This document shows, one piece after another, positions 1 through 46,687 of a stretch of 64,000 nt of DNA; the first letter of the stretch is position 1, and the number at the start of each line of letters is the position of its first letter. The DNA is from a virus. A program made the position numbers and the translations under genes. The DNA lies in IMG/VR virus record IMGVR_UViG_3300045581_000900, positions 47,940 through 111,939 of that record; one strand, 5' to 3'. A model generated the notes under the pieces. The model was not told the DNA's origin, searched no databases, and saw only the letters and a list, made by a program, of their open reading frames with translations.

Positions 1-1715
1 AGAATCTGCTTCACGTCAAAATCAGCCAGACTGCCAGCTTCGAGCCGCTTTCGCAGCACGGACTGAATCATGCCCGGCGAATCGACAAGGTTCGGGGCCA
101 ACTCGGAAATCTCGTTAAACGCCATGGCCACGTCTTGCGGATCATAGCCCGAGATTACAGGGTCATTAAGCACAAGGTCGTGCAGGACGCCCTTGGCCCG
201 AATCGTTTTCAATGCCTGCTCGTGATCGGCATCGGTGAGCGATTGAAAGTGTTCTTTTGTCTTGTCTTTCTTGCCGTCACCATGCAGCATCTTGCCGATC
301 TGCCCAGTCACGCCTTCTTGGCTCGCACCGATTAAACCGCCGACCATTTTCACTGGCGTTGTAATACCAATTTTGTTGTCTTTCAGTATCGAGTTTAATC
401 CGCCAGACGTGTCCTTCGCGACTTGTTTTCCTCCGGCGAGTAACGCGTTGATCGGGTCCTTGGTAGCCTGACTTATCTGTGTAAACGGATTTTTTGGCTC
501 CGGGACGCTATCGCGGGTTGCTCTTCCGTCGGCGACTCTTTTTTCATGCTCCGCAATGCTGTCGTCCCACGGTTTAAAAAGCTCGTCGACATATTCTTCG
601 GTGCTTTGTTCGCCACGAGCCGCTTCTTCGCGGTCCAGTTTTTTGTCGATGGACTTGGTGCTGGTCAGCGGCGGCGAATCCTTTGAGCCAGCGAAATCCC
701 GGGCGGTGAACGACGTGCGACCGGCGAACGGGTCGGTAGGCATTAAGCCGCCTGTTAAGTACGGTTCTTGCAGAGCTTTGCGGGTTTTTGCGGCCTGCAC
801 GCGGGCGTCAAGTCCGCCGGCTTCTTTTAACGTCAGTGGTTCGTCAGCGGGATTGTGCAAGATAGAGCCTGTAATAAACTCTGGTGCTTCTTTCTTACCA
901 AATCCCGCATCAGCTTTTTTTGTGGCTACCCGGCTCTGTGCCTCGTTGTAGTGCTCAACGGTGCCAATCACGTCTTCCACAAGCTTGTACAGCGGGTCAT
1001 GCCCGTAGTGGTTCTTGCCGCTGTCTGCCTGCTTCGTAAAGTGCGGGTACACCGCGGCGATCTTTTGCAGGACGCTCACGCCGCTGGGACCAAGCCGCAA
1101 GCCGACCTCACGCAGGGCGTCTCCAAACGGCATATTGCCGGGCGTGCGGAAATACGTATTTAACTCTTCAAGGCTGTTCGCGGCTTTCTGATATGCCGCG
1201 GCGGCTTGCCGCCGCGTTTCTTCTGCCGCACGCAGTGCGGCATTTTTTTCGCTTTGGGCCCGCATTACAGCCGCGTGCTCGTCACGCGGTGGCGGGGTCC
1301 ATGTCTTCTCGGGCAGAGCCACACCGGCACTCGCGGCCTTCTGCATCGCGTCCCGGCGGCGGTTTAAAAAGCCAGACGGCGGTACTGCATACTCGGTCGA
1401 GACGAGTTCGGACCGTTTCAGTTCCGCAGATGTCTTCACGTTCTCGGGGTACAGGGCTTCAAGAATCACGCGAACGTCAGCCAACGGAAACTCAGCCGCC
1501 TTTTCCAGCGTGTTTTCGCCGCCTTCTCGCTGCTTTGTCGTCCGGCCGGTGTTATAGGCATGCACCATCAGGTTAACGTGCCCGGACGGAATATTGGCGT
1601 CGCTGGCACTCTTGATAATCGCGTCATTGGGGCTCATGCCTTCGTTAACAAGCGAGGCGGCCTTCTCAATGGCGGAGATTAGCTTCCGCTCGGCTTCCTT
1701 GGTGAGTGTACGCAT
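1..1715 (-). CDS. Hypothetical probable virion protein, truncated by the left edge (absent from ORF track)
   Basis: ATG at 1715 just after the upstream stop. Reads MRTLTKEAERKLISAIEKAAS...EKAAEFPLAD, and the same frame reads ...NDPVISGYDPQDVAMAFNEISELAP... near base 1. Middle not checked codon by codon. Confidence 0.8.
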   Translation of the reverse strand, partial: MRTLTKEAERKLISAIEKAASLVNEGMSPNDAIIKSASDANIPSGHVNLMVHAYNTGRTTKQREGGENTLEKAAEFPLADVRVILEALYPENVKTSAELKRSELVSTEYAVPPSGFLNRRRDAMQKAASAGVALPEKTWTPPPRDEHAAVMRAQSEKNAALRAAEETRRQAAAAYQKAANSLEELNTYFRTPGNMPFGDALREVGLRLGPSGVSVLQKIAAVYPHFTKQADSGKNHYGHDPLYKLVEDVIGTVEHYNEAQSRVATKKADAGFGKKEAPEFITGSILHNPADEPLTLKEAGGLDARVQAAKTRKALQEPYLTGGLMPTDPFAGRTSFTARDFAGSKDSPPLTSTKSIDKKLDREEAARGEQSTEEYVDELFKPWDDSIAEHEKRVADGRATRDSVPEPKNPFTQISQATKDPINALLAGGKQVAKDTSGGLNSILKDNKIGITTPVKMVGGLIGASQEGVTGQIGKMLHGDGKKDKTKEHFQSLTDADHEQALKTIRAKGVLHDLVLNDPVISGYDPQDVAMAFNEISELAPNLVDSPGMIQSVLRKRLEAGSLADFDVKQI

Positions 1716-5490: not shown

Positions 5491-7464
5491 TTACAGTGTT
5501 TTAGGCGGCGAGCCTAGAGGACCCGGCAGTGGACTTGCGGGGGACATGCGGGGTACTTGCGGGGTACTTGGGGGGTACTTGGGGGCTGGCTCCGGTTTCC
5601 AGCCGCTTGTTGTGCCAGAAACGCCGAATTGTTCGCCGCGGGCCAAAGCCGGCACATAGCTGCTCCCGGACGTATCACTGGCACGGCCGCGGTGCACGCT
5701 ATTAAGAAATCCGCGTTCCTGATACGACCCGAGCATTCTTGTCATCCAGTCGGGGTCGTTGGAGATATTCGCCATGCCACGAACCATTTCAGATTCAAAC
5801 GGCGGCGGTTCTTTGTGGGCTTGGATGTTTGTAATTCCGTACTTCTTCAGATTATCGGCCACGCTTTTTGTAATCTTCGTTCCGATCGAGTAATGCAGGG
5901 CGGGTTCTTCCAGATAGTGATTTGAAAGTGTCGCCGGGTTGCCCGCAATGGCCCCGTCTCTGGGTTTCCACGATCGTTCCAGCATGGAATACGGCACAAT
6001 GTCGTCCGGGGCGTAATCGCCGTACTCGTCATTGAGCCGCACATGATTAATCAAGCCGCGAGCGACCAGTTCGATATTCCGGCGGTGAGCGGTAATGCCT
6101 GAGTTCTTCAATACATCACGCATGGCAGAAACGAAATATCGCCGGCCCTCGCCGACGCCTTTGTGCCTGACGATCTCCGCCGGGTTGGGCATGCCATCAG
6201 ACAGCACGTCGCCGGCTTCGAGCATGTCGCCTTTCTTGACAGAGACCACGCGGTCAGCAGGGACGTAGTGCTCTTCGCCGTCCACCACGACGTACGAACC
6301 GCCTTGAGCCGCCGGGCGAATTTCCTGCACCCGGCCCTCTCGCTGGGCATGTGTGGCCCCGTCGGGATATTTCTTGGGCACCTGCACCAGAGCGTTAATA
6401 GCCTTGAAGCCGCCAATAGACTTGGCCCCGCCGACACCGCCGGAGTGCTTTGAACTAAGCTGAGACTGGCTGACCGGCTCCGAGAGAGCTTGAGCCGCGG
6501 CCACGCCCACATAGTCGCCTACGGGCGGCAAACGGCCCTTTTCGCGGTAGCCGACGTCTTTGGCGTACACGCCGCCGTCTTCAGGGCCGCCCACCGTCGG
6601 GCTGCGGACAAGGATGTCTTTGACGCCCATCTCTTTAAGGTCTTTGAGAATCTTGGGCGTGAGCAGCGTGTTTCGCTTGTAGGGGCCGATCGGGCGGGCC
6701 AGAAACGCCCCTTCGTTGTCGGGATCGTCCACATCGGAGGGCATACCGCGGTTCGAGGCTGTGGTCGCTCGCTCTTCGTCATCATCGTCGTCTGCCGTTA
6801 CAAGCAGGCGGTGAGCCATCTGCGTAAGCTGCTTGCCGTAGAAGCCGGCGTCGGCCGTGGCTGTTTTGACGTCAATGACGCCCTTGCGGGTGCCGAAGCT
6901 CGCGGCGAAGTATTCCGCCGGCGTTAAGCCTCGCCCGTAAGACCGCAGCACCGGCAGCGGAATCGGCTCGTCCTTGTGGTCGACGTACTGCAAATCGGCA
7001 CCGATCAACGAGTTCAGCGTAAACTTATTGCCGGACCCGCCGCCCAACACCTGCTGCACCAGCGGGTTATTGTTCTCTAACGCCTCGTTGTAAACATCGT
7101 CGATGAGTTTCTTCTGCGTATCTGCCGCCAACTGCAGAATCTTTAGCTGCCGCTCTTTTTCCGGCATGTTCGGCGTGGCCATGATGCCGCGGAGCTTTTT
7201 ACGCACGTCAAGTTCCGCCCGGCGGCTGGCAAACGTGGGCTTGATGTCTTTTAAGCCCATCGACAAACCGCCAGTCGAATACGCCACGTCGCGGGAGACG
7301 TCATGAATCTTCTTCATGACTTCGCGGTACTTGTCCGGGTGCCGCTTTGCTAGGTCCGTCGCCAGCGAGCCCATATTTTTCTTGTCGAGCACGCGGTTGT
7401 AATCCCGCATGTCTTCAGGCAGAGCTTCGTTGATGAGCAGTTGGCCTAGCGTCGTTTTTAACAC
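5491..7464 (-). CDS. rpoC: DNA-directed RNA polymerase beta-prime subunit, C-terminal part
   Basis: Starts at KTTLGQLL (=TTVGR); bridge helix GTRKGVIDVKTATADAGFYGKQL; trigger loop VGVAAAQALSEPVSQSQLSSKHSGG; AHRRNIELVAR. Confidence 0.93.
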   Translation of the reverse strand: MLKTTLGQLLINEALPEDMRDYNRVLDKKNMGSLATDLAKRHPDKYREVMKKIHDVSRDVAYSTGGLSMGLKDIKPTFASRRAELDVRKKLRGIMATPNMPEKERQLKILQLAADTQKKLIDDVYNEALENNNPLVQQVLGGGSGNKFTLNSLIGADLQYVDHKDEPIPLPVLRSYGRGLTPAEYFAASFGTRKGVIDVKTATADAGFYGKQLTQMAHRLLVTADDDDDEERATTASNRGMPSDVDDPDNEGAFLARPIGPYKRNTLLTPKILKDLKEMGVKDILVRSPTVGGPEDGGVYAKDVGYREKGRLPPVGDYVGVAAAQALSEPVSQSQLSSKHSGGVGGAKSIGGFKAINALVQVPKKYPDGATHAQREGRVQEIRPAAQGGSYVVVDGEEHYVPADRVVSVKKGDMLEAGDVLSDGMPNPAEIVRHKGVGEGRRYFVSAMRDVLKNSGITAHRRNIELVARGLINHVRLNDEYGDYAPDDIVPYSMLERSWKPRDGAIAGNPATLSNHYLEEPALHYSIGTKITKSVADNLKKYGITNIQAHKEPPPFESEMVRGMANISNDPDWMTRMLGSYQERGFLNSVHRGRASDTSGSSYVPALARGEQFGVSGTTSGWKPEPAPKYPPSTPQVPRMSPASPLPGPLGSPPKTL

Positions 7465-8427: not shown

Positions 8428-11400
8428 TCAAGGCTTATCTTCTACGATGTGAACCGGCGTGTCCACATCAATCTCGCCGCGTCGGTACGCCGCGAGAGCG
8501 TCCTTTTTGCTGCGGTAGACCCGTGGCTTGGAGCGGTTGTTCATTTTGCTGGAAGCTAAGTATACACCAGTCTGGTAATCTTTATTCGGCACATAATGGG
8601 CTTTGAAGTTCGCCGTGGCAAAAAGGTTCTTGCTCGGCAGCATCTTTTCCACGGCTTCTTTTGCCGCTTCTTCGGTACTGGGGACGTGGTACTGCATGGC
8701 GTCCCCGTCGAAATCAGCCCCGAAACCCTTGGTAATTACCGGATTTACTTCCATAACTTTGTTTTTAGTCAGCCGCGGATAAAACGCCATCACGCCGTAG
8801 CGGTGCAGCACAGGAGCCCGGTTGATCACAATGGGCTTGGCGTTCATCTGCGTGTTTAACTCGTCAAAAGCGGCTTTATTTTTGTCTTCTACAGCCCGCA
8901 GGGCGTTCATTCGGGGCATTCCGCGGCGGACGAGGCCCCGGACGACGAACGGCTTGTAAATCTCCCACGCTTTTTCCTCGGGGAGAGCGACTTCGTCCAT
9001 GTCGAGGTCGGGATTCGGGGTAATCACCGCCCGCCCCACAAGGTCGACGGTGCTGGAGAGCAGTTTTCGCTGCATGGTGCCGAATTTGGGGCTGTCGCCG
9101 AAAATTTTCGACAAGAAACCGCGGACGTTACGTTCGACGTTCTTGGGGTGCTGCGGATCACCAAGACCCGTCACGGCTTTCATCGAGTCATACAGAGATA
9201 AACGCTCGTTACCATAATCGGCAAACGTCCCGGAGGCTTCTTTTAAGACGTTATTGGAGTCGAGCAGTTCTTTGTAGAGATAATTCGCGTCATCCACGAG
9301 CGGGAGTTTCTTGGAGCCCATAGTCGAAACAGGGCGGAAAGCCGGCGGCAGCACACCCACTTTCGTGAGCATCCAGTCTTTCGGGTGCACGTTGGTTGTT
9401 TCGGCACCTTTTAAAAAGCCCAACCGGCGAACAGCGGCGTCTCGAACTGTCTTGCGGCCTGATTTGATGTCTTCGCGAGCCTGCTCAATTGCCTTCGGCA
9501 GATTAATGCTCTTCAACGCATCATGAATGGCCGCAGGTCCCGTTTTGTCGCCTAACTTGTCTTGGCCGGCCAGAATGCCGCGGAATTGCTTTTCGGTAAG
9601 CCCAAGAACGCGGCGAATGGGTTCTTCCATGATCGGGTTGGGCATCGGCTCGTGTAACGTGATCTTCGCCCACCGATTGCCGCCATGACCGCCCGTAAGC
9701 GTCTCATCGAACAAGCCGCCTTTGATGGGCTTGAGATTGCCTTTCCAGTCGACGGTCTCGGCACTGGTGATTTCACGCTCGCCGGCTAGTTCGTCGACGG
9801 ATTTGTCTGTTAAAGCCATGATGTGCGTCTTAGTTCCCGTACGCACTGTATTCACGCCAGACGCCCGCAGTTGATTCACAAACTTTTCGTAGACGTGCGG
9901 AACTTTGGGGAGCGGCGGGTCGTAACCGGCCATGAATTGCGTCCAGTACTCAGGATTAGCTTGGCCGCGTACCATCTTGGAGTCGCGAACTACTTTGCCG
10001 GCACCGTGGGAAAGCAAAGCTCCCAGTTCGAGCATGCCGACGCGTTTAGCCCCTTCTGATCCGCCCTTGGCTGGTGTGCCTTCGGCTGTATAGCCGCCGG
10101 TCGAGCGTCCTTGGCCCTTGGATTCGGCCGTGTGATGGAGTTTCATGAAGAACCGGTGGCCCGTTAAGATTCCCTTGATCTTCCGGCCAGATTCGGGGTC
10201 AGTCAGGTCTTCCGTGTCAGAGAGCCCGTGTTTGGCAAGTTCCTGCTGGGCGAACTCAATTAAGTCCTTCTGGTCGTCGAAATCTTTGATCTTGAACGGC
10301 TGCCCGGTCTTAGCCGCGACTTTGCCCAGTGCCGCCTCAACGATCTGGGCGGGGTTTACACGGCTAATAAGTCCGAGGGGGCTGACCAGTATCTCCATCG
10401 GGTTTCCGTCTTTATCGGTCGGCATCTGCTGATCTGGGACGATTTCAGATACCACGCCCTTGTCGCCGAATCTGCCGGTGATCTTGTCGCCCACTTCCAT
10501 CTGGGCTTTTGATTTCACGACAACCGAAACACCCTTCTTGGTGTGCTCGACGTCCGTAACAATCCCGGGAGAGTGGTGCTCCCACGTCAGAGTCTCGTTC
10601 GCAAACGCACCGCCGCGGCCTCGATGCACCTTGCCGTATACCTGTTCGCGTTTCTTGGCCACGAGAACGAGCGGGTCACCGAAGTTCACAACGGTGCCTT
10701 TCTTGATCGCCCCGTTGTCGTCGAAGCTCTCCAGCATCTTCTTGTCGTACTCGGACGGGAACAACGACATGAACGCCTTTTTGCCGACGTGGGTGTTGTC
10801 GTCCCACTCGGCTTCGTGCTGATACATGTGCTGGCTGGTAAGTCTCTTGGCCGCAGACTCAGAGATCACCACGGCGTCTTCGTAGTTTCTTCCGCGGAAC
10901 GGCAGATAGCCCACGCGAAGGTTTAATCCAAGAGCCGCGGAGCCGTTCTTATCGGTAAAGTTGGACGTGGCAATAAGCTGCCCGGGCTTGATAGTGTCGC
11001 CGGGCTGCACAGTCGGCGTCTGTGTCCAGAACGTCTTCCGATTGAACGGCATGTCGTTATACAAGTCGATAGTCTGCTTTTTGCCGTCTTGATCGCGAAT
11101 GATGATCTCGTCTGGCGTAATAGCTTCGACCTTGCCGGCAAACTGTGATTTAATCGCTCCCAGTTTCTCGCCCATCTCGTCTTCGTGCGAGGTGCCGGGC
11201 AGGTCGGCTTTTTCCGACTGCACAAACGGTGACTCGGCGTTTTCCAGCGGGAGAGCCTGTGTAAACATACGGCTGCCCATGATGACACGCTGGCCCTTTA
11301 CCATGGACTTCATCGGCACCATGTTTGTGAGAGCCGAGAACGTGCTGTCCATGTTGGGTACGGTGTACTGGGCGTCTTTTTTGGGCACGTACTTAATCTT

Positions 11401-12864
11401 GCCGTTCACCAGTGCCGCGACCATCGGAAGATCGGACTTCTCTTCGCCGGGGAACATCAGCGGCATGTCGGCGAGTTCCTGCGGCGTCTTGTACTCAGTC
11501 TCGCCCGTCTGGGAGTTCTTCACGGGCACGACAAACGTGTGCAAATTCTGGGCTGACTTGCGGGCACCGGCGGCAAATCGCATATCGACGCCTACCTTGC
11601 CGCTCTCGGGCGTGCGGAGATAGTCGATAAAGCCGAAATGACTCGGCTGCACGCTGCGGGATTCGGCGGGAACGGCGTCGAGCGAGCCGATGCCGCCTTC
11701 GCCCAGTCGCGTGACGCGGGTCTGGTGATCGAAGATTTCAGCCGGGTTGATCTCTTCGAGGCTGGAACCAAGACCTGACCCGATAAGGGCCGCGGTGATC
11801 GACTTGTTAAACACGCCGGAAGGAATGTGATCCAGTGACTTTTTGGCCGTGGCTTTCCAGAGCAGTTGCCGCAGGGCTGTCTTGTCTTTGACGAACCGCT
11901 CCGAGATCAAATCCTCGGGGCCGAAGACCTGCTGATACGTCATGCTGTCGCGGTCGTCGCTGTCGGCTTCTTTACGATTGACGGCGATCAGCTTCTTCGT
12001 GATGTCGAGAATCGCGTCGGGGGTGAGATTCTTGTAGGGCTTGCCGAGCGTGCGTTTGGTGACCTCTTCGTCCAACTCTGTCTTGTTAAACTCCGCCGCG
12101 ATGGCCTTGATCTTGGCGATCTGGTCTGCGTTGGCGTCTGGTTTGAAGACAAGGCGTTGATAAAGTTTGTCGAGCGTGCCGGCATCGCCCTTCTGCATGT
12201 TGACGGCTGTGATCTCATTGCCCCACGCCTCCCGCATCTGCTTGTCGGTGACGCCGAGCGTCTTCAGCAGGGGCATGAGCGGAATCTTGGCTTGGCCGAT
12301 TTGAATCTGGAACTCGCCGGTCTTGGGGTCCATGTAATACCGGTGCGAGCGACCTTTGCCGGGCAGAGTATTGACGTGCGACTCCAGTTCGCCGTTCTCC
12401 TTCTCGCGGGTGAACACGCCCGGCCGCAGACGGAGTTGGTGGGCAAGGGTGTATTCAACGCCTTTGTTCACGAACGTGCCGGAGTCGGTGAGATACGGGA
12501 CGTTGGCGATCGTAGCTTGGCGGGACGCGACCGGCTGCTGTGTTTTGTTGTCTATGAGCGTCCACGTGCCGGTGAGCTTCCGGGCCAGAGAGCCACGCGT
12601 GAGCACGGCCTTCTTTTGGTCCTTGCGGCTGAACCGTTCGGGGCCGGCGTAGCCGACGTTCTGCAACTGCAGCGTGTACAGATCGTTTTGAATCGGCTCG
12701 ATGCTCGACGCACTTCGCAGAGCTTCGTTGAAGATATTGTCGCGAAGAGCGGGTACGTCGCCGAACGCTCGCGTCTGCGGCTGAGCGATCGGCTGCTTTG
12801 GCAGCGGCGGAGCAAGCGGCGGAAGTTGCGGGGCTGGTTGCAGCGGATCAGGCATGGCTCTCAC
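8428..12864 (-). CDS. rpoB: DNA-directed RNA polymerase: beta subunit fused to the N-terminal part of beta-prime
   Basis: Beta motifs HFGFIDYLRTPESGKVG, GRNYEDAVVISE, GDKITGRFGDKGVV, MKLHHTAESKGQGRSTG; then beta-prime motifs VLPPAFRP, NRAPVLHR and catalytic GADFDGD (8701-8721). Confidence 0.96.
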   Translation of the reverse strand: MRAMPDPLQPAPQLPPLAPPLPKQPIAQPQTRAFGDVPALRDNIFNEALRSASSIEPIQNDLYTLQLQNVGYAGPERFSRKDQKKAVLTRGSLARKLTGTWTLIDNKTQQPVASRQATIANVPYLTDSGTFVNKGVEYTLAHQLRLRPGVFTREKENGELESHVNTLPGKGRSHRYYMDPKTGEFQIQIGQAKIPLMPLLKTLGVTDKQMREAWGNEITAVNMQKGDAGTLDKLYQRLVFKPDANADQIAKIKAIAAEFNKTELDEEVTKRTLGKPYKNLTPDAILDITKKLIAVNRKEADSDDRDSMTYQQVFGPEDLISERFVKDKTALRQLLWKATAKKSLDHIPSGVFNKSITAALIGSGLGSSLEEINPAEIFDHQTRVTRLGEGGIGSLDAVPAESRSVQPSHFGFIDYLRTPESGKVGVDMRFAAGARKSAQNLHTFVVPVKNSQTGETEYKTPQELADMPLMFPGEEKSDLPMVAALVNGKIKYVPKKDAQYTVPNMDSTFSALTNMVPMKSMVKGQRVIMGSRMFTQALPLENAESPFVQSEKADLPGTSHEDEMGEKLGAIKSQFAGKVEAITPDEIIIRDQDGKKQTIDLYNDMPFNRKTFWTQTPTVQPGDTIKPGQLIATSNFTDKNGSAALGLNLRVGYLPFRGRNYEDAVVISESAAKRLTSQHMYQHEAEWDDNTHVGKKAFMSLFPSEYDKKMLESFDDNGAIKKGTVVNFGDPLVLVAKKREQVYGKVHRGRGGAFANETLTWEHHSPGIVTDVEHTKKGVSVVVKSKAQMEVGDKITGRFGDKGVVSEIVPDQQMPTDKDGNPMEILVSPLGLISRVNPAQIVEAALGKVAAKTGQPFKIKDFDDQKDLIEFAQQELAKHGLSDTEDLTDPESGRKIKGILTGHRFFMKLHHTAESKGQGRSTGGYTAEGTPAKGGSEGAKRVGMLELGALLSHGAGKVVRDSKMVRGQANPEYWTQFMAGYDPPLPKVPHVYEKFVNQLRASGVNTVRTGTKTHIMALTDKSVDELAGEREITSAETVDWKGNLKPIKGGLFDETLTGGHGGNRWAKITLHEPMPNPIMEEPIRRVLGLTEKQFRGILAGQDKLGDKTGPAAIHDALKSINLPKAIEQAREDIKSGRKTVRDAAVRRLGFLKGAETTNVHPKDWMLTKVGVLPPAFRPVSTMGSKKLPLVDDANYLYKELLDSNNVLKEASGTFADYGNERLSLYDSMKAVTGLGDPQHPKNVERNVRGFLSKIFGDSPKFGTMQRKLLSSTVDLVGRAVITPNPDLDMDEVALPEEKAWEIYKPFVVRGLVRRGMPRMNALRAVEDKNKAAFDELNTQMNAKPIVINRAPVLHRYGVMAFYPRLTKNKVMEVNPVITKGFGADFDGDAMQYHVPSTEEAAKEAVEKMLPSKNLFATANFKAHYVPNKDYQTGVYLASSKMNNRSKPRVYRSKKDALAAYRRGEIDVDTPVHIVEDKP

Positions 12865-17568: not shown

Positions 17569-18384
17569 TCATGTTTGCGGGACAAGTACGTAGGGCCTGC
17601 CGTTGATCATAATCTTGCCGCCAATTTTAAGTCCAGCGTCCTTTGTTAATGGATACCGGCCTTTGCGTTTGCCGTACAGCTTTACCATCTCTTCAATGTC
17701 GCCGGCACGTGGGGCTGTGCAGTTCGGGTCGTAGTACGGGGCCATTAAATTCCCTGCGTTTAAATGCCCCAGCCCCAACGCGTGCCCGAGTTCGTGACAC
17801 ATGACCGCTACGGCCATATTAAACGACCAGTCTTCTGCCTCGTCGTACATCTGATCAAGCTGCATGTTTTCTGCCACGCCGCACGGAAGTTCGCTCCACG
17901 CCAGCGTGCCACCGCGTGCGTCGAGATTGTGCTTTCTGCCCGAGCCAGAGCGGGCGTAGATATTGGCGTGCTCTTTCTTCTCCACGCGGGTCGGCTCGAT
18001 CGCACACACCTCAGCCCACTGCGAAAACGCAATATCGTACGCCTCTTTAATCTGCTCGTCCGACATGTTCGGCAGCTTGATGTCGTGGTAGTACGTGATC
18101 TTCTGCATGGGCCACTTGCAGGGGTCCAAGCCTGCGGCGGTCAGATTAAAATCAGGCAGGCCGCAACGAAGCTTCCGAATACGATGGGCGGTCTTCTCAT
18201 TGACGTCGCCGCTCTCCTCCAGCCCGTTAAACTTCTGATATTCGCGGACCGCTTTTTGCAGTTCGGCCCCCTTCAATTTTTTAACAGCCGCCCACGATTT
18301 GTCGCCAAAGTACCCATAGTCGTACAAGAACTTTAAAACGTCATTGATCGGGAGTACGCTGTTTAATGCCGGCTTCCGTGCCAT
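17569..18384 (-). CDS. Matrixin (M10) metallopeptidase with PG-binding-like prodomain and cysteine switch
   Basis: RCGLPD; HELGHALGLGH; Met-turn LMAPYY. Confidence 0.88.
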   Translation of the reverse strand: MARKPALNSVLPINDVLKFLYDYGYFGDKSWAAVKKLKGAELQKAVREYQKFNGLEESGDVNEKTAHRIRKLRCGLPDFNLTAAGLDPCKWPMQKITYYHDIKLPNMSDEQIKEAYDIAFSQWAEVCAIEPTRVEKKEHANIYARSGSGRKHNLDARGGTLAWSELPCGVAENMQLDQMYDEAEDWSFNMAVAVMCHELGHALGLGHLNAGNLMAPYYDPNCTAPRAGDIEEMVKLYGKRKGRYPLTKDAGLKIGGKIMINGRPYVLVPQT

Positions 18385-19179: not shown

Positions 19180-20154
19180 TTAATTTCTATTAAACATTGC
19201 CGGCACGATTGCGTGCATCATACCACCCCAAAGTCCCATGTCTTGTAACTTTTGTTGGCCCAGCGGTGTTAAACCGGCCATTGCCGACAACGCTCGGCCC
19301 GCGATGTTTGCCGTCGCCAATCCGACGCCCGCAGACGCAATACCGCGAATCACGTCGACAGGCCGAATAATCGGAGAACGTTGGGCCGTGCTGATGCCTG
19401 TCATTAAGCCAGTTGTCGCTGCGGCGTAAGCCGGGGGCGTAAACTGGCTCCCACCAGTATACATTCCGCGTTGTACATCTTGCCATGCCGCCTGATTAAA
19501 TTGCGGCACGGACACCGTCGGAGCAAACAGACTCGCGTTATTAAATTGTGCGAAGCCGACTTTTTCGTCAGGGGCGGTCGTGGGCGTCGTGTTCGGCGTC
19601 ACCCATGATTTCCAGAAGCCGATGTCTGGTCGCGTGCGGTAGGTGGCATAGGCGTTGTTTAAACCAATTAACCCGCCGCCAGCGAGGCCCATCAGGCCGA
19701 GATTCTTCCGCAGCCGACCACGCTCCAGATAGCGTTCTGGAAACAGGTTCTCTGCCAGTGCTCCCGCCCCGTAACCGACACCGCCAAGCATCAGCCCAGA
19801 GACGATCGCGTTGGATAACGGCGTCGGGCCGCCCAGCATTTTGTGGCCAAAATCGAACGCGTGACTGATGCCGGGAATCGCCGCAGATTTAATCAAAATT
19901 TCGCGGTCCCAGTCCGGCAGGGTTTCTCGGCTTCTGAGCACGACACAGCGACCATTATCGACGGCCAGCTTGGAGAGCGGCTTCGGTCGGTAGAGCACGA
20001 GCACGTCGTCGACCGTGTCCCATGTGGCTGTGGTGCCGGCTAAGTCACCGGTCTGGGCAGCGATCTTGAAATACAGATGCTGCAGGTGCATGGCCTGCGG
20101 CAGCAATTCAGCGACGCGGTTTGGCACCTGCTGCCAGTCTTGAAGCGTGGTCAT
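19180..20154 (-). CDS. Glycine-zipper probable virion protein
   Basis: GxxxG helices; FKIAA, SKLA, IKSAA motifs; HAFDFG. Confidence 0.75.
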   Translation of the reverse strand: MTTLQDWQQVPNRVAELLPQAMHLQHLYFKIAAQTGDLAGTTATWDTVDDVLVLYRPKPLSKLAVDNGRCVVLRSRETLPDWDREILIKSAAIPGISHAFDFGHKMLGGPTPLSNAIVSGLMLGGVGYGAGALAENLFPERYLERGRLRKNLGLMGLAGGGLIGLNNAYATYRTRPDIGFWKSWVTPNTTPTTAPDEKVGFAQFNNASLFAPTVSVPQFNQAAWQDVQRGMYTGGSQFTPPAYAAATTGLMTGISTAQRSPIIRPVDVIRGIASAGVGLATANIAGRALSAMAGLTPLGQQKLQDMGLWGGMMHAIVPAMFNRN

Positions 20155-21896
20155 TTCGGCCTCCCCAACGCCATGTTTAAAAACTGGTCGCCGTAGTTGT
20201 GAATGGCTTGTTCGGCGAAGTCGGGTTGCTCCATTTCGCCCCGCATGGCTTTCATGGCAAGTTGGTAGCGGTACTGCGGGCTTAACGCCGCCATGTACCG
20301 CTGATGATTCTGCCGAGCGTTGATCATGAAATCGCCGCGGCGTTTCACCTCCATCAACTGGTTCTGAATGTTTTCGAACACCGGCTTGTTGTAATCATAT
20401 TTAATCGGCTGCCGCAGGCTGTACATGTTGCGAAGTTGATTCATATACACGTTCTCGGCCGCCTTCACGGTCGCCGGAATAGCCGTCGGGTCCATGTGCA
20501 GCCGAAAGTTCGTCGGCGTATGCGTGACACCCTTGTGGTACGGCTTCGGGTCGTCAATCCGCCAATCGTGCGGCGATTGTTCCATTAATCGCCGCAAAAT
20601 CTGCGTCTTTTGTTCGTACTGTTTGTTGTCCGAGTGCTTTTTAGCCGCCAGCAGCTTTTGAATGATGGCTTTATCAGCGGCAATAGCGGCTTTTTCTATT
20701 TCTTTGATTTTTTCGTAGTAGTGGGGGTCTTCGGACAGATGATCTTTGGCAATTTCTTTGGCGATTTGATCATTACTTGTGTGTTCGTGCTCATGCTTGG
20801 CTCCTTCGGCTAACGCGGCTGGAGAAAATTCCTGATCGGGTAAATTATCGGCTTCTCCGCCCGGTAACAGGTCTTTTTGTCCCGAGTGGGAAAGTTCGGC
20901 AGCCGCGGCTTTGTTAATAGCCGGAGCTAAGAGTTTTTTAATGTCCGGGCCCATGTAGTCGTCGCCTTCGGGCAGGCCGTGCGACAACGTAACCACTGCG
21001 TCAGAACCGACAGTGGCATTAAAGTTTCCGGGCTTGAGTTTGTGCTTCAGCAGTTCCAGATAATGCTCGTGCTGCCAGCCTTCTCGCGGGTCGTTACCGA
21101 GCGGCCGAAACGCTGTCGGCCTAATCTTGACGCCGAGTTCTTCAAACATCTCCCGGGCGGCGGCTTGGGCCGGAGTTTCGCCCGCTTCGATGCCGCCGCC
21201 CATAAACCGCCGTTTGCCGATATTCTGCGGCCATTTTGAGTTGTTGAGCGTTTCCATCAAATACTGGTTTTTATACGGCATTACGACGCGGACGCGGGGC
21301 TGCGGCTGATCGCTGGCCGCTTTTCTCACCTCGTTATCCTGCAGCACTTTCTTGCGGCGAACAGCGACGGTGATGTGGAACTGATGGTCGCCGTTCATGA
21401 GCGGCGAGAGCCCGTAGCTCTTGCGTAACGCGGCCAGTTCAGGGCTGGAGACTTGAATGACCCAGACTTTGCTGATACTGCCGGCCTTATTAATGCTTAT
21501 TTCCTTCATGCTCCCCAGTCGATAGGAGAACATGTGGCCGCGTTCGTTGATCTTGTCAACACCGATCTGCTCCACCTCGTCAGCCTTCATGACCGAGATG
21601 TGGGCGTTGAGCACGTCTGCAGCAACGTTCGGCACGCTCCACACGCCACTCGTCGGCAATTCGGCTCCGGGAACCGACATGGCGTCGAATACGCCGCGGA
21701 CAAGGGCGTTCGGCACGGAGAGCAGCAGCCAGCCGCTTTTGGCTAAATACAGCCGGCCGACAAGCGGGTAGTTCGTCGCGGCCTGCTTGTTGCCGCGGTA
21801 CAGCCAGCCAAACGCGTGGCCGGCTTTATATTCGGGCGTTTCGGCGTAAAGCTCGGGTCGCCACGTTCGTTGATCTAAGACTGAGAAGCCATCCAT
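20151..21896 (-). CDS. Modular polyprotein: 2H phosphoesterase + NUDIX hydrolase + DUF5661-like + further modules
   Basis: HISV and HITV (2H motifs); NUDIX box GGIEAGETPAQAAAREMFEELG; EHEHT...EIAKDHLSEDPHYY; KQA/KAA linkers. Confidence 0.85.
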   Translation of the reverse strand: MDGFSVLDQRTWRPELYAETPEYKAGHAFGWLYRGNKQAATNYPLVGRLYLAKSGWLLLSVPNALVRGVFDAMSVPGAELPTSGVWSVPNVAADVLNAHISVMKADEVEQIGVDKINERGHMFSYRLGSMKEISINKAGSISKVWVIQVSSPELAALRKSYGLSPLMNGDHQFHITVAVRRKKVLQDNEVRKAASDQPQPRVRVVMPYKNQYLMETLNNSKWPQNIGKRRFMGGGIEAGETPAQAAAREMFEELGVKIRPTAFRPLGNDPREGWQHEHYLELLKHKLKPGNFNATVGSDAVVTLSHGLPEGDDYMGPDIKKLLAPAINKAAAAELSHSGQKDLLPGGEADNLPDQEFSPAALAEGAKHEHEHTSNDQIAKEIAKDHLSEDPHYYEKIKEIEKAAIAADKAIIQKLLAAKKHSDNKQYEQKTQILRRLMEQSPHDWRIDDPKPYHKGVTHTPTNFRLHMDPTAIPATVKAAENVYMNQLRNMYSLRQPIKYDYNKPVFENIQNQLMEVKRRGDFMINARQNHQRYMAALSPQYRYQLAMKAMRGEMEQPDFAEQAIHNYGDQFLNMALGRPK

Positions 21897-21911: not shown

Positions 21912-22109
21912 TTACTTCTGGGCCGCCGCCGCTGTCGTGGAATAACTTTCTGGGGCCGCGGCGGCCGCTGGACCACACACAGTAATCGCGTGTGCAGACA
22001 AAAACATCGCCCAGCCACATAGGGCCGCCATAATCCACGCCATCAGGCTCATCTGGTTACGGATGTGTTGATTCATGGTCATCGTTGTCGCCGTAGCGGT
22101 GTGTGTCAT
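21912..22109 (-). CDS. Small single-TM protein overlapping the holin-like gene end
   Basis: TM LMAWIMAALCGWAMFLSA; start uncertain. Confidence 0.5.
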   Translation of the reverse strand: MTHTATATTMTMNQHIRNQMSLMAWIMAALCGWAMFLSAHAITVCGPAAAAAPESYSTTAAAAQK

Positions 22110-22431
22110 CCCGGTCCCTTTCGTGATTAATGATGACTTTAATCCCGGCACCAGACAAGAGCGAAATTAAGATGTCAGTCAGCGTCGAGCCGCCCATGCC
22201 CGCGAGGACACAGATGCCGATTAGACCGTGAATATTCGCCGCCTTTTGATAGTTTTCGTACCAAATCAGGGAAATGGCCAAACCCATAAACCCGGCGTTT
22301 AACATCGAGCTTACCACCGCTAGTTTAGAAAGTTTGCGGCTGAAACGCAAAAGCGTCGCCAGCCCGGCAAACGCCGAGACCCCGAACGCCGACGCAAACA
22401 CCGATAAAGACACGATAAATTCGTCGACCAT
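22057..22431 (-). CDS. Three-TM holin-like protein
   Basis: ATG 22431 (MVDEFIV); three TM helices; charged C-tail. Confidence 0.65.
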   Translation of the reverse strand: MVDEFIVSLSVFASAFGVSAFAGLATLLRFSRKLSKLAVVSSMLNAGFMGLAISLIWYENYQKAANIHGLIGICVLAGMGGSTLTDILISLLSGAGIKVIINHERDRDDTHRYGDNDDHESTHP

Positions 22432-23330: not shown

Positions 23331-24365
23331 TCAGAGCACTTTCGCCGCGATCAGACACCCGCGGGCGACGGCATGCAGCGGATCGTTGGCGTGCCGCACT
23401 TCTTTGACCGGCAGCGGAAACTCGTTCTCTTCGAGCTTCTTGGCAAACAAGTCGACGAAGCCTTTGGCCTGACTCGTGCCGCCGGCGATCACGACCGGCA
23501 GCGGGTTCTTGAACTTGGGCAGGAGCTTGTGCCCCTTCATCGCCGCGGCCAGATTCTTGGTGGTGTAGTCGATGAGCCGTTCGTAGTAGGAACTCACCGC
23601 GGCTAAGACAACATTATCGTTCGGCTGGCCGATCGTGAACTCACCGTTCTCTTTCTCGGCCTGCACAACGCTGTCCGGCTCGCCCACGGCAATGGCACTC
23701 ATGCGGTCAATCCAGTCGCCCGATTTTGTCGTCGAAAACATGACGGTCGGCTCGCCGTTGAGCATGACGCAGCAGTTCACCATGCCCGCTCCGCACGACA
23801 ACGCCACGCCGGTGTATTCGTCACCCTCCAGTTCCGAGTAGCACAGGGCCTCGGCCTCGTTGATCGCCCGGGCGTTGTAGCCGCACGAGGCCAGCACGGT
23901 CTTGACGACGTCTTCGTGGTAGCCGACGTCGAACTCGTCGTCCTCTTGGTCGACAGGCTGGGCGGGCACGCAGAACACCAGCTTCTCGTCCTGCTCGACT
24001 GCCTTGCCGCAAACCTGCTTGAGGATGTACGCCAAGACACGCTTGGCTTCTTTCTCTTTCGAACTCACGACGCCGCGGTACATGGGCCGCTTGGCCGACT
24101 CGTTCCGCTCGATAGCTTTCTCGATGGCGTCTTGGCCCAGAATGATGAACGTGCCGTCGGTATCTTTGACGAAGACTTTGCCCTGCAGTCCCTTCTCAAT
24201 CATCTTCGTCGCCACCGGAGTCGTGGGCTTGATACAGTAGAACGCGTCGCGGAATTCTTTGTAAGTCGTGTATTCCGTCTTGTCGTCGCTGGTAAAGCTG
24301 ACGGGGCCTTCGGTGTCACTGGCCAGCACGATATACGAGGTTCCGACGTCGAGTCCTTTTGCCAT
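23331..24365 (-). CDS. Actin-like ATPase, volactin-like
   Basis: Phosphate-1 GLDVGTS, connect-1 INEAEA, phosphate-2 SCGAGMVN, adenosine IAGGTS, connect-2 PLHAVARG. Confidence 0.88.
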   Translation of the reverse strand: MAKGLDVGTSYIVLASDTEGPVSFTSDDKTEYTTYKEFRDAFYCIKPTTPVATKMIEKGLQGKVFVKDTDGTFIILGQDAIEKAIERNESAKRPMYRGVVSSKEKEAKRVLAYILKQVCGKAVEQDEKLVFCVPAQPVDQEDDEFDVGYHEDVVKTVLASCGYNARAINEAEALCYSELEGDEYTGVALSCGAGMVNCCVMLNGEPTVMFSTTKSGDWIDRMSAIAVGEPDSVVQAEKENGEFTIGQPNDNVVLAAVSSYYERLIDYTTKNLAAAMKGHKLLPKFKNPLPVVIAGGTSQAKGFVDLFAKKLEENEFPLPVKEVRHANDPLHAVARGCLIAAKVL

Positions 24366-42823: not shown

Positions 42824-44674
42824 TTATTCAGTGGGCAGCCGCAGCGGGCCCATCTTGTGCATCCGTTCGGCGAGCCGTTTGAGTTCCTTGGAGCTATAGC
42901 CGACGCCCGAGCTTCGCATGGCGGCCTCGTAGTCGTCCGCGGTGCCCTCTTCGGGCACGCTGGCCAACGCGTGAGCCGCCGCCGTGGGCCGGTCCTTGAA
43001 CCCGTCGCCGATCCACTTGTACAGGCTGCGGGTCTCTTTATTCGCTTGGCGGCCACTGGGCCGGCCCCAGTCAGTCTCGATGTACGGGAACGGGGCCAGA
43101 CCAATAGCCGTGCCACCGATCGGGCCGCCGAGGCGTAACGCGATATCAGGCGTCGGAACCACGCCGCCTAAATATCTGTATCCCACTTGGGGATTGAGGC
43201 CCCATTCGCCGAGTTGCCACTTCTGGCCGCCCCAGCTTGGCGAGAGATTTAACACCCGCTTGGCAGCTTCTTTGCCGAAGCTTTCCGCGGCACTGCACTT
43301 GCAGTTCCACTTGCGTAACGCCTTGTTAATCCGGGAGTCGGGGTCCTTCTTGGTCTTGCTGCCCGTGTTCACCCGCTTCATGCCGCACATCCGTGAGCAG
43401 AACGAATTCTGGCGTTTATCGCGTTCGCCCGTGGGGTTCTTTTCGGTCACCGGAGCCTTGAGATTGCCGCCGGTTTCGCGGTTGTAGCTCGCCCGGCCTT
43501 TGGCGTTTAAGCCGCCCTCGTCGTTCTTGCCGGCAGCCCGTTGCCATGCTGGCGTGCTGGCCCATTTCACCACGGCACTTTTCACGCGTTCTTCGGCCAG
43601 AATATCGAGCATAGTATCGGGCTCAACGTGGTCCATGCCCATGAGCCAACCCTGAATGGGATCACCGCTGCTGCTGGACTTGAAATGCGTATTTAAACGG
43701 TCATAATCCGGCTGAAAATCCTGCACGGGATACTCGCTGTCGTCGTAGTCGCCCTGTGTATAGTTGCGGTAGCCCGCCCGCAGAGCTTTCGACAAGAGCG
43801 AGCCGGCCAACATACCGCCAGCCAGCGGACCAAACGGCAAATGCACAGTATTCGCCGGCGGCTTTTTCTTCTTGGCCGTGGTTTTCGCCGCCGAAATCTT
43901 GGTGTTCACGGTATTGGGTGCCGACAGGCTGGCATTGCCGTTGATAATTCCGCTCATAGATAACCCCGAATGAAATTTAATTGGGTCCGTGGTCGCCGAG
44001 GACTGGCCGGCACCTACGGGTGTCGGATTCGCTGGCTGGGATTGTTGTTTTTGCTGCGATTGTGCTGGCTGGGCAGGGGCTTGAGCCTGCTGCATCCCCA
44101 TTGGGAGTGGTATCTGCGGCGTGGCGACGGGGTACTGTTTTAAACCTTGGTTTTTTCCCACGCGGACGGGAACGCGGCCCTCCCGTTCAGCATTCATGTT
44201 CTCCATGGTCTGTTCAATCGCTGGAGATAACACCACGGAAAGCTTCTGTAGCAGCGTGTTTATGGCATTTTCGCCCTGACCTTCGTCGATATTCTTGCCC
44301 GTATCTATGCTGCTGGAAATCAGCCCCTTTTCTCGCTCTTCTCCGGCATACACTGGCTTTTCACTCTGCGGCATGTCGACTTTTTCCTGTTTGGAGTCGG
44401 CTGTTTTCGCGTTTTGGGCCGGATCGGGGTCTAAAATAGAAGGCACGGTAAAGTTAACACTGTCCGTAAATCGACGAATTAAACCCGAAATGTTAATTTG
44501 GGCTGTTTTCTCCGCGGGCTGGGTTGTATCGTTTTTATCACTGGCGTACATGGGCAAATCCTTATTGGACTTGGGATATTTATGGGCCCAGCGTTTGGCG
44601 ATATCAGGGTGTTCGGCCCAGAGAAAGCGGCGTTGTTTCTCAGATTTAAACGGCATAGCGGATTTGGTTCCCAA
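42824..44674 (-). CDS. Modular probable virion polyprotein (MPFKSEKQRR micro-domain, DUF6321-like domain)
   Basis: TKSA, EKTA, AKTA, VKSA, VKWA, GKEA motifs; AWQRAAGKNDEGGLNAKGRASYN...SFCSRMCGMK...RINKALRKWNC. Confidence 0.8.
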   Translation of the reverse strand: MGTKSAMPFKSEKQRRFLWAEHPDIAKRWAHKYPKSNKDLPMYASDKNDTTQPAEKTAQINISGLIRRFTDSVNFTVPSILDPDPAQNAKTADSKQEKVDMPQSEKPVYAGEEREKGLISSSIDTGKNIDEGQGENAINTLLQKLSVVLSPAIEQTMENMNAEREGRVPVRVGKNQGLKQYPVATPQIPLPMGMQQAQAPAQPAQSQQKQQSQPANPTPVGAGQSSATTDPIKFHSGLSMSGIINGNASLSAPNTVNTKISAAKTTAKKKKPPANTVHLPFGPLAGGMLAGSLLSKALRAGYRNYTQGDYDDSEYPVQDFQPDYDRLNTHFKSSSSGDPIQGWLMGMDHVEPDTMLDILAEERVKSAVVKWASTPAWQRAAGKNDEGGLNAKGRASYNRETGGNLKAPVTEKNPTGERDKRQNSFCSRMCGMKRVNTGSKTKKDPDSRINKALRKWNCKCSAAESFGKEAAKRVLNLSPSWGGQKWQLGEWGLNPQVGYRYLGGVVPTPDIALRLGGPIGGTAIGLAPFPYIETDWGRPSGRQANKETRSLYKWIGDGFKDRPTAAAHALASVPEEGTADDYEAAMRSSGVGYSSKELKRLAERMHKMGPLRLPTE

Positions 44675-44787: not shown

Positions 44788-45000
44788 TCAAACGGAACAA
44801 AGCCGTTGAACCCGGTGAGCGTCATACCAGCCGGCGTTCGGGAGTGGGGTAAGTGTCGGTCCTGTGATGCTTTCCGGTTTGAACATGACCAAATAAGATG
44901 GGGCGGCCCAGCGGCTCCCGGGATAAATATCAATAACCGTACCCCGCATCTTTTCATCGTCATCGAACGTAACAACAACACGATCGTTTTTCTTAATCAT
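44788..45000 (-). CDS. Small SH3-like beta protein
   Basis: IKKNDRVVV...GTVIDI...YLVMF. Confidence 0.6.
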   Translation of the reverse strand: MIKKNDRVVVTFDDDEKMRGTVIDIYPGSRWAAPSYLVMFKPESITGPTLTPLPNAGWYDAHRVQRLCSV

Positions 45001-45027
45001 GACGTGTAGCTCCAGAGGGTGAAAAAA

Positions 45028-45345
45028 TCAGCAGATGCCGGGGATGTGAATTCCGGCCTTGGACGCGGCGTCACGGTGCTGGCGGAAAACACGCTGCCAG
45101 TACCGGTAGTCGTCAACCGCCCTTTTTTGACTGGCCGGCGAGTAGTCTTCCCCGAGTTCAGGCGTCCACTCGTACGACAAGGCAAGTTCCATTCTGGCCT
45201 CGGCGAGGTCATACTGCTTCTTCAGGTCGATGACGTTCTGCTTGAGAATCTGGTTGTGCTCCATTTTGTTGGCAATGAACTTGAGCACGACCAAGGCGAT
45301 CACGAACACCAGCATGACGATCAGGAAAAACTGTTCGGCGGTCAT
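45028..45345 (-). CDS. Single-TM protein
   Basis: SD AGGAG; N-terminal TM. Confidence 0.7.
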   Translation of the reverse strand: MTAEQFFLIVMLVFVIALVVLKFIANKMEHNQILKQNVIDLKKQYDLAEARMELALSYEWTPELGEDYSPASQKRAVDDYRYWQRVFRQHRDAASKAGIHIPGIC

Positions 45346-45387
45346 GTATATGACTCCTAGAGTGAATGGTTACAGGTCCCTTATTTG

Positions 45388-45416
45388 ATATGCCCGGATT
45401 ATGTTGGTTATTTAGC
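45388..45416 (-). promoter_or_regulatory. Phage promoter-like motif GCTAAAT-N15-GGCATAT (copy 1)
   Basis: Exact bipartite match in four intergenic sites. Confidence 0.8.
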
Positions 45417-45424
45417 CGGACGCC

Positions 45425-45647
45425 GATAGCTAAAAAAAGGGGCGAGTTGTTGAGTTAGGCAGGCACTACAGCCTGTTTCTCCTCTCACTCACTCCCCTTT
45501 ACTGCGGTTGACGTACGCAGCTTTACGGGCAATACCCTATGGCTTTCGCCCAAGGGTTCGGGACCACCTTGCTTTTTTGGCCGTCTTACGGGCTGTCCAT
45601 CGGATATTACGTCCGGGGACCAACTGAGGGATAAGCAGAACCTCGCC
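45425..45647 (-). ncRNA. Unnamed ~207-nt structured RNA ending in the T7AGCTATC tail
   Basis: GGCGAG/CUCGCC terminal pairing; UCCCC/GGGGA and UCCCUCA/UGAGAGGA rod; five internal hairpins; no ORF in the track. Confidence 0.55.
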
Positions 45648-45688
45648 AGAAACCAAGAAACATTAAACCAACATTATCGGGTACAGCA

Positions 45689-46132: not shown

Positions 46133-46181
46133 AAAAGTATCGAAACCATCAACACCCAGCCGAACACACGTCGGCGGGGAA

Positions 46182-46242
46182 AGTCCGTGTGCAGGATTCG
46201 AACCTGCTCGGCACCTTGGGCAAGTGCTTTCCTTTCACGGAC
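46182..46242 (-). ncRNA. D-armless tRNA-like RNA (CCC at the anticodon position)
   Basis: Acceptor GTCCGTG/CACGGAC; AAAGGAAA in place of the D arm; GCACT-TGCCCAA-GGTGC; canonical T arm GCAGG-TTCGAAT-CCTGC. Confidence 0.65.
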
Positions 46243-46250
46243 GGCTTTGG

Positions 46251-46496: not shown

Positions 46497-46598
46497 GATA
46501 GAATCACTCCACAGCGACACAATTGAGTTAAAGTTCAACAGCCCTGTCGAACCCCGGGCAGGGCACTACGTCGCGAATAGTATTCCCCTGCTTATTAG

Positions 46599-46627: not shown

Positions 46628-46647
46628 TATTGGCGGGCAGGGGTTTT

Positions 46648-46677: not shown

Positions 46678-46687
46678 CGGCTGGGGA

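Follow-up and report, generated by a model that had tools for sequence, protein, structure and literature searches.

A putative modular polyprotein delimited by K-x-A tripeptides as candidate capsid cargo in an uncultivated jumbo-phage clade

Head proteins that are cut by a protease and injected into the host cell are textbook components of bacteriophage particles. For example, Alt and the internal proteins of T4, the Dar proteins of P1 and the inner-body proteins of phiKZ are all packaged, processed by a protease and injected. The sites recognised by head proteases are short motifs, L/I-x-E in T4 and S/A/G-x-E in phiKZ; similarly, the assemblin of herpesviruses cuts at V/L/I-x-A↓S. A further group, the polyvalent proteins described by Iyer, Burroughs, Anand, de Souza and Aravind in 2017, has been proposed to be carried in the particle and to enter along with the DNA (PMC5512222), and gp45 of crAss001 is a proven virion cargo protein (PMC10172136). 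The gene considered here, a single open reading frame (ORF) of 581 amino acids (aa) plus stop codon with an ATG start (P0001; 20151..21896, minus strand), lies in a 64,000 nt stretch of virus DNA, henceforth the window, which forms the right-hand 64 kb of the 111,939 bp IMG/VR virus record IMGVR_UViG_3300045581_000900 (positions 47,940 to 111,939). Its product is a 'beads-on-a-string' chain with a conserved K-[Q/A/S]-A tripeptide at every junction. It would enter the prohead, where the head-maturation protease would cut at K-x-A, with the P3-x-P1 geometry seen in T4 and phiKZ, and the small separate proteins so released would pass into the cell when the DNA is ejected. The probability of this overall reading, that of a K-x-A-cut, capsid-packaged and DNA-ejected modular polyprotein, is put at roughly 0.5. 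Less securely, the payload would act on nucleotides or RNA ends at the first moments of infection, either destroying nucleotide immune signals or stripping and trimming the ends of host RNA.

The polyprotein contains exactly five K-[QA]-A tripeptides (aa 37, 192, 329, 402 and 478) and no other K-x-A, and each falls at a module border, splitting the protein into six pieces; this is in agreement with the preliminary description of the locus, which had proposed about six modules joined by KQA or KAA. The 2H, NUDIX and DUF5661-like domains and the DNA ranges it had named were likewise recovered, all three of them above the Pfam gathering cut-offs against which matches were judged. The first piece, all coordinates within the gene being on the minus strand, is a leader (21780..21896; aa 1-39) with the consensus MDGLSxLD...YxAGNAxGWLxRGxKQA, ending in K37-Q-A39. 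It forms a separate segment of 30-40 aa in 130 homologues, with KQA at its end in 120 of 163, and may represent a propeptide or a capsid-targeting segment. In AlphaFold2 models, made for the two halves of the polyprotein (predicted local distance difference test scores, pLDDT, of 74.6 and 77.0), the leader has helices at aa 9-34, and pLDDT falls to 63 in the block that holds its site.

The second piece is a 2H phosphoesterase module (21315..21779; aa 40-194) ending in K192-A-A194, with its two motifs, H99-I-S and H174-I-T, found as NAH99-I-S-V at 21591-21608 and FH174-I-T-V at 21366-21380. Both are retained in 155 of 163 homologues; H99 is invariant, and H174 is invariant in one alignment (A2) and nearly so in another (A1). 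The Pfam family 2H-SAK (PF22547) matches aa 98-183 with 42.4 bits (cut-off 27; expect value, E, 1e-10), covering profile positions 37-122 of 124. It is followed by a NUDIX hydrolase module (20904..21314; aa 195-331), an optional cassette in the family, which ends in K329-A-A331, matches Pfam NUDIX (PF00293) at aa 230-291 with 40.4 bits (cut-off 21.1) and contains a complete Nudix box of the form GX5EX7REUXEEXGU at aa 234-256 (GGIEAGETPAQAAAREMFEELGV; window 21129-21197); this is the only part of the polyprotein matched by PHROGs. The 2H and NUDIX modules are apparently active enzymes. The fourth piece (20685..20903; aa 332-404), ending in K402-A-A404, carries many invariant residues in the pattern LLPGGxADN...HEHEHT...EIAKDHL...YY, matches DUF5661 (PF18905) at aa 365-402 with 33.9 bits (cut-off 27) and is helical in the model. 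The remaining two pieces could be assigned to no family: module 5 (20457..20684; aa 405-480), consisting of two helices and a three-stranded sheet, ends in K478-A-A480, and module 6 (20154..20456; aa 481-581) is a helical bundle, helices being predicted in the model, that forms a conserved C-terminal core of the family and has 121 members as a segment family of its own.

Both the number and the placement of the tripeptides show that the junction motif is under selection. Shuffled versions of the polyprotein contained a mean of 0.89 sites, with five or more in just 0.2% of 20,000 shuffles. The stronger evidence is comparative. Among 163 unique homologues in which BLAST was used to place the five module cores, the stretches outside the cores hold 511 K-[AQS]-A tripeptides, or 18.7 per 1000 aa, and the cores themselves 16, or 0.26 per 1000 aa, making the motif 72 times as dense between modules as within them. 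The five junctions, read in 120 homologues, run GNKQAAT, GELKAA or VRKAA, xKKAA, IEKAA and GVKAA. In the AlphaFold2 models, sites 192 and 329 lie in disordered stretches (pLDDT <52), sites 37 and 402 in local dips of pLDDT and site 478 in coil. The preference for particular flanking residues is weak, in that 64% of sites have a hydrophobic residue at K-2 or K-1, the background being 53%.

The content of the chain varies between relatives around a fixed core of 2H, DUF5661 and module 6. Ten architectures, ranging in size from 364 to 1007 aa, were distinguished among the 163 homologues, the most common being 2H-DUF5661-M5-M6 (n=72), 2H-NUDIX-DUF5661-M5-M6 (n=55) and 2H-DUF5661-M6 (n=18), where M5 and M6 denote modules 5 and 6. 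The swappable cassettes, which include NUDIX, a P-loop kinase and a Cys-rich knot, sit after the 2H module; NUDIX itself occurs in approximately 40% of the homologue architectures, in zero to two copies. The inserted pieces comprise a second or third type of NUDIX domain, a nucleotide-type P-loop kinase of the AAA_18/SKI type, a knot of about 30 aa rich in cysteine and an uncharacterised module of about 240 aa. Most of the inserted cassettes seen carry a K-x-A boundary of their own, such that in one relative of 857 aa nine K-x-A sites bound ten pieces, two of which are NUDIX modules. The recognisable cassettes are all predicted to act on nucleotides or RNA ends. The Cys-rich mini-modules of about 30 aa (TYxCxCSGxCxCPxTCxCK...), flanked by K-x-A, constitute a segment family of 19 members in their own right, found for instance in relatives of the polyprotein at the related loci L014:10001-11926 and L053:10001-12571.

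This organisation has both similarities to and differences from that of the polyvalent proteins. Shared features are the presence of multiple effectors, a mosaic and variable architecture, and 2H domains that are never linked to RNA ligases (PMC5512222). By contrast, the present polyprotein is much smaller, at 364-1007 aa across the family, is built around the 2H, DUF5661 and module 6 core, and has a fixed tripeptide resembling a protease site between its modules, which would yield free fragments rather than one giant protein. Unlike the polyvalent proteins, its family also contains no MuF, portal or other hallmark packaging domain detectable with Pfam or PHROG. A parallel in delivery may be provided by gp45 and gp46 of crAss001 (PMC10172136), cargo proteins that are stored in the virion and ejected before the DNA, a behaviour that is only proposed for the polyprotein; here the differences are that there is no homology outside DUF5661 and that no cutting into modules is known for the crassvirus cargo.

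The evidence linking the tripeptide to the capsid comes from the head module of the same genome. Four neighbouring genes of this module, which code for proteins of 597, 485, 455 and 143 aa and lie just upstream of the capsid gene, contain strict K-[AQS]-A tripeptides at 8-14 per 1000 aa, compared with 1.6 for the genome as a whole. The 597 aa protein is encoded by the first gene of the module, the 3' part of which occupies window positions 1..1715 (minus strand), and has six K-[AQS]-A tripeptides within its first 230 aa. Just left of the window, at G000 46395-47852 (L004:6395-7852), is the gene for the 485 aa protein, a protease candidate with four K-x-A sites, followed by that for a 455 aa acidic, Ala-rich, scaffold-like protein with five (G000 44981-46348). 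The major capsid protein itself (phrog_2522; G000 42974-43915) contains the sequence MQKQA at aa 28-32. This capsid site is kept in two complete relatives, and four of the six sites in the 597 aa protein are kept in an orthologue that is 47% identical; in the RNA polymerase of the phage, both K-x-A sites are lost at 77-80% identity in the two complete relatives compared. Because the motif is common to the N-terminus of the capsid protein, the scaffold-like protein and the product of the gene in the protease position, K-x-A is rather probably the cleavage site of the head-maturation protease. Were it so, the polyprotein would in turn be capsid cargo, and its packaging is judged to be only slightly less probable than the cleavage. 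The packaged polyprotein of the preliminary description is thus favoured by a motif that seems to be selected and is shared with these head proteins, although the support is indirect.

The protease that would make these cuts has a candidate in the 485 aa protein, which stands at the canonical position in the order portal-like, protease, scaffold and capsid. It has invariant H90, H103, S164 and D172 residues and a cluster of four cysteines, as well as a nearly invariant K247-A-A249 right behind its conserved N-domain. As a lead only, the named Atlas clusters nearest to it are all prohead serine proteases (language-model score 0.88). The family comprises 2592 representative clusters. Approximately 15% of the best matches are 830-900 aa long, their alignments being split at about query position 170, beside the invariant S164-M-A-C167, a pattern suggestive of an intein at a functional site.

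Processing by the gp21 protease of T4, acting on Alt and the internal proteins, by gp175 of phiKZ, acting on the inner-body proteins, and of the Dar proteins of P1 likewise depends on a P3-x-P1 motif that is common to capsid, scaffold and cargo, and there too an N-terminal leader precedes the first site and enzymes are among the cargo. These systems differ from the present one in that the motif here is K-x-A, five sites would divide a single product into six pieces, and the protease is not recognisable as a member of S77, S78 or S80. Processing is also known in those phages, whereas here the polyprotein is known from genes alone. K-x-A is not known to have a precedent as a maturation-cleavage motif, no literature search having been made for it.

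A number of observations weigh against cleavage and packaging. The clade is uncultivated and known only as sequence, so that both processes are read from genes. The polyprotein gene lies at least 18 kb from the head module, its neighbours being genes for an actin-like protein, a metalloprotease and an RNA polymerase. The 485 aa protein matches no known protease family in any formal test: no protease family turned up when 40 members were scanned with Pfam, neither phmmer nor a profile search brought up any PDB sequence, and for HK97 gp4 hhalign gave a probability of just 0.1-0.2, with both a single sequence and an 18-sequence profile. Neither the S77 nor the S78 protease model of Pfam had a match in the window's genome or in three complete relatives; nor did the S80 model, but this last result is uninformative, as that model was also silent in every control genome. 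The motif is loose, in that some junctions of the most divergent relatives read K-T-G, K-A-G or K-Q-S, and the rule may therefore be closer to a lysine, any residue and then a small residue; yet the relaxed K-x-[AGS] is too frequent to be diagnostic, with 20 conserved copies in the RNA polymerase. A shared N-terminal tag of the form 'AFxFG...K-x-A' was not significant either, since the four instances observed, against 0.7 expected, are equalled in shuffled sequences; the polyprotein itself falls outside this regular expression. A by-eye likeness between DH-x8-FGLV/PVSMAC in the protease candidate and NH-x6-VGKW/GMSVGF in HK97 is without statistical support.

What the payload might do depends firstly on the identity of the 2H module, which by its motifs and its modelled two-lobed alpha+beta fold is a bona fide member of the 2H superfamily; the argument lies in the consistency of the match list, the Z scores being modest. 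In a VIA-align comparison covering aa 53-187, the top 21 of 48,161 PDB representatives were all 2H enzymes, with Z between 6.5 and 3.7. The best single match was to Acb1 (7t27; Z 6.5, root mean square deviation 3.4 over 106 residues), the nuclease of T4 (gp57B) and phage FBB1 (PDB 7t26/7t27) directed against the cyclic oligonucleotide-based antiphage signalling system (CBASS). Behind it came LigT (6.0), Usb1 (5.6), a Burkholderia phage phosphodiesterase (5.5) and CPDase (5.4), the top 2H matches having only 9-15% identity. No literature on the BCSR5 phage phosphodiesterase was found. Foldseek likewise placed Acb1 at ranks 1-2 (E 0.066, TM score 0.30-0.41), with Usb1 also among the top matches and E values of about 0.07-0.1 overall. 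In a library of viral structures, the best matches were uncharacterised giant-virus proteins (E 5e-7 to 6e-4), other leading ones being a 1030 aa phage protein annotated as '2'-5' RNA ligase superfamily' and a SAK-2H protein; models labelled as Acb1 ranked 17th or lower (E 0.05-0.25). A PDB sequence search with the family profile gave no 2H match. The sole Pfam 2H family matched was 2H-SAK, which was above its cut-off in the polyprotein and in ten of ten relatives tested. This family represents the 2H domain of 'Swiss-army-knife' RNA-repair proteins; no literature was found on 'Swiss army knife' in connection with 2H or NUDIX; HAD phosphatase and ligase partners are absent here.

The structural models therefore place Acb1, LigT and Usb1 in a tie, and the 2H module does not appear to be specifically Acb1-like. 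It shares with Acb1 the fold and the two HxS/T motifs, but there is no relationship at the level of sequence, and Acb1 is expressed as a stand-alone protein rather than as a module of a polyprotein. The destruction of immune second messengers that was originally suggested is hypothetical; the Foldseek comparison proposed as a check on it ranked Acb1 first, albeit with the weak E and TM values given above. The NUDIX module is similarly assignable, from its signature, to the superfamily and to no subfamily. Against curated subfamily models it gave 15 hits that were confined to the box, the best being MutT with 24.6 bits (cut-off 97.9), and it exceeded the cut-off of none of those for MutT, RppH, ADPRase, NudC and Ap4A hydrolase. 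A profile search of PDB returned only generic Nudix-box matches, with E at or above 2e-4. Models for RNA pyrophosphohydrolase, the 'RNA deprotection' enzyme YtkD and Nudt16-like decapping were among the weak matches.

In the C-terminal half of the chain, structural searches gave no relatives for any of the three modules, DUF5661 being without a PDB match. For DUF5661 and modules 5 and 6 together, the best Foldseek match had an E of 1.5, and the best VIA-align matches, with Z up to 5.3, were generic helical bundles. A resemblance of this half to the Acb2/Vs.4 sponge for cyclic GMP-AMP was rejected, its Z of 4.4 being at the level of noise. Elsewhere, DUF5661 is found as stand-alone phage proteins of 86-106 aa, and no literature on it was found. 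According to the Atlas annotation, one cluster fuses DUF5661 with the crAss cargo-protein-1 domain, which can be regarded only as a lead; in crAss001 gp45, no DUF5661 was detected at E <= 0.1. The DUF2213 protein gp14 of Vibrio phage vB_VpaM_VPs20 (L109:4335-5603), whose gene is flanked by those for the terminase and for a capsid-type DUF2184 protein, has in its middle a stretch resembling DUF5661 (E 1e-4, 50% identity across 40 aa). These contexts are consistent with an association of DUF5661 with the capsid interior, without amounting to proof.

In polyvalent proteins, the absence of ligases led to the proposal that 2H domains act either as RNases or in the degradation of nucleotide immune signals (PMC5512222; also PMC7824862), and the same two options can be considered for the polyprotein, both being conditional on the enzymes being active. 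The first, the likelier of the two though still improbable rather than probable, is that of an injected anti-signalling cassette acting before phage genes begin to be expressed, in which the 2H module would cleave the cyclic oligonucleotides of CBASS and of type III CRISPR (clustered regularly interspaced short palindromic repeats) systems, and the NUDIX module would cleave Thoeris-type signals derived from ADP-ribose or dinucleoside-polyphosphate signals. It is favoured by the leading rank of Acb1 in both structural searches, by the fact that the cassettes of relatives (2H, one or two NUDIX, P-loop kinase) are all predicted to be nucleotide-directed, by the failure to find an RNA ligase in the complete relatives and by a turnover of cassettes that resembles an arms race. 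Nevertheless, Acb1 is tied with LigT, Usb1 and CPDase at a very low identity, its Foldseek scores are poor, the Acb1-labelled viral models are outranked by giant-virus and SAK-type 2H proteins, and the only Pfam 2H match is to 2H-SAK. The NUDIX module is, moreover, without a subfamily, and as 2H is fixed in the clade and NUDIX is not, the two do not form an obligate pair. Overall, the anti-defence function envisaged for the polyprotein at the outset is only partly supported.

The second option, which seems unlikely to a somewhat greater degree, is that the modules are RNA-end effectors for taking over the host: NUDIX, in the manner of RppH or NudC, would remove a 5' pyrophosphate or nicotinamide adenine dinucleotide cap, 2H would act as a Usb1-like 3' exoribonuclease or as a 2',3'-cyclic phosphodiesterase, and the kinase present in some relatives would phosphorylate 5'-OH ends, so that host mRNA decays faster or RNA-cleaving defences are neutralised. 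The Usb1 structures among the tied top matches, the weak NUDIX matches to RNA-directed models and the RNase role put forward by Iyer et al. (PMC5512222) all argue for this. However, the NUDIX subfamily hits are at the level of the box and far under the cut-offs, a search of three complete relatives revealed no RNA ligase as a partner, and no RNA-binding domain was found among the modules.

At a comparable level of doubt stands the possibility that the chain is never cut, and is instead a cytoplasmic multidomain enzyme with a role in, for example, nucleotide housekeeping, in which K-x-A would be merely an Ala-rich linker. The location of the gene outside the head module, the fact that no protease has been verified and the degeneration of the junction motif in distant relatives all fit with this suggestion. 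Yet an invariant lysine between flanks that vary in both length and sequence is not what one would expect of a simple linker, and neither is the recurrence of the motif at the N-terminus of the capsid protein and, repeatedly, in scaffold-like head proteins. Nor would such a linker be expected to travel, as K-x-A does, with the inserted cassettes, and nothing in the catalytic roles of the modules evidently calls for them to be covalently joined. Finally, a SAK-type system of ligase-coupled RNA repair, directed against the anticodon nucleases of the host, might be suggested by the 2H-SAK match and the P-loop kinase cassette of some relatives, but is very improbable because neither an Rnl2-type ligase nor RtcB was found in the window's genome and three complete relatives, with controls that worked (positive in 8 and 10 of 14 genomes, respectively), and the polyprotein has no HAD phosphatase domain according to Pfam. 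Rnl1-type ligases likewise had no match in these four genomes, but the control for them was silent as well, which makes this result uninformative.

Returning to the cleaved and packaged polyprotein, a more ambitious version of this reading has an undescribed family of K-x-A proteases and a set of swapped, nucleotide-directed cassettes that would be injected before gene expression begins in order to disarm nucleotide-based immunity; this combination is appreciably less probable than cleavage or packaging taken by themselves, and should be seen as speculative.

The gene is a real, core and syntenic component of a clade of uncultivated, contractile-tailed jumbo phages with genomes of about 200 kb. 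The record has an estimated completeness of 55%, and complete relatives are 198-205 kb in size, some with direct terminal repeats. The structural genes of the genome include those for a tail sheath and an HK97-type capsid protein, and the phage is therefore a jumbo myovirus; it also carries a multisubunit RNA polymerase with a beta/beta' fusion, a Volactin-family actin and a metalloprotease resembling matrix metalloproteinases (MMPs). Homologues of the polyprotein make up over 446 protein clusters, and a relative of it is encoded on 292 viral contigs. DNA and protein searches of an isolated-phage collection found no near relative, the only match being that of Virus Rctr197k over the DUF5661 stretch alone. 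An identical gene order, consisting of actin, a 181 aa gene, a membrane protein, the polyprotein, a 324 aa Gly/Ala-rich protein, the metalloprotease and RNA polymerase, is found in all 12 of the long related loci printed, and each of the genes flanking the polyprotein is matched in 49-75 of 75 related loci.

Adjoining the polyprotein in 64 of the 75 loci is the gene for the 324 aa Gly/Ala-rich hydrophobic protein (19180..20154, minus strand), the ATG of which overlaps the polyprotein stop codon (ATGA), making its product a possible partner of the polyprotein. On the other side, a 79 aa ORF with a hydrophobic helix (window 21912-22151, minus strand) ends 15 nt ahead of the polyprotein ATG; owing to this short gap and the stop/start overlap, the three genes have the appearance of being co-translated.

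Several neighbouring features, all on the minus strand, merit description in their own right. Three genes upstream of the polyprotein, at 23331-24365, is that for the actin-fold protein, which has a full-length match to Pfam Volactin (E 8.5e-62) and is matched in 71 of 75 related loci. The metalloprotease (17569-18384), matched in 57 of 75, is a 271 aa protein with a Peptidase_M10 (matrixin) domain, a PG_binding_1 prodomain and a cysteine-switch-like RCGLPD motif, and represents a phage-encoded zymogen in the style of the MMPs. The RNA polymerase genes are situated at 8428-12864 and 5491-7464: one ORF of 1478 aa contains beta fused to the N-terminal half of beta', and the C-terminal part of beta' (Rpb1 domain 5) is a separate gene of 657 aa. 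Further away, a promoter-like motif, CTAAATA-N14-GGCATAT, is present in three exact copies (45388-45415, 46599-46626 and 47822-47849) where 0.01 would be expected; the motif is real, but no copy lies close to the polyprotein gene. At 42824-44674 a protein of 616 aa is encoded that includes DUF6321 (E 1.2e-21), which is common to many uncharacterised phage proteins.

The packaging of multi-enzyme effectors, including 2H domains, that counter nucleotide signalling has already been published (PMC5512222). What is new here is the format of a small modular polyprotein with a fixed K-x-A delimiter and a turnover of cassettes, its status as a core gene in a large uncultivated jumbo-phage clade and the lack of a recognisable maturation protease. 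If the junctions are uncut, the gene would encode an ordinary multidomain, nucleotide-metabolising phage protein. If K-x-A is cut in the prohead, it would represent a polyprotein strategy in a tailed double-stranded DNA phage, a compact way of loading a number of small enzymes in advance, with cassettes being swapped, so that they are at hand in the first seconds after infection. The tripeptide would then serve as a simple rule by which capsid cargo could be predicted from sequence throughout the clade and as a pointer to what may be a new family of maturation proteases, and the presence or absence of modules between fixed boundaries would constitute a natural experiment on which payloads matter against which hosts.

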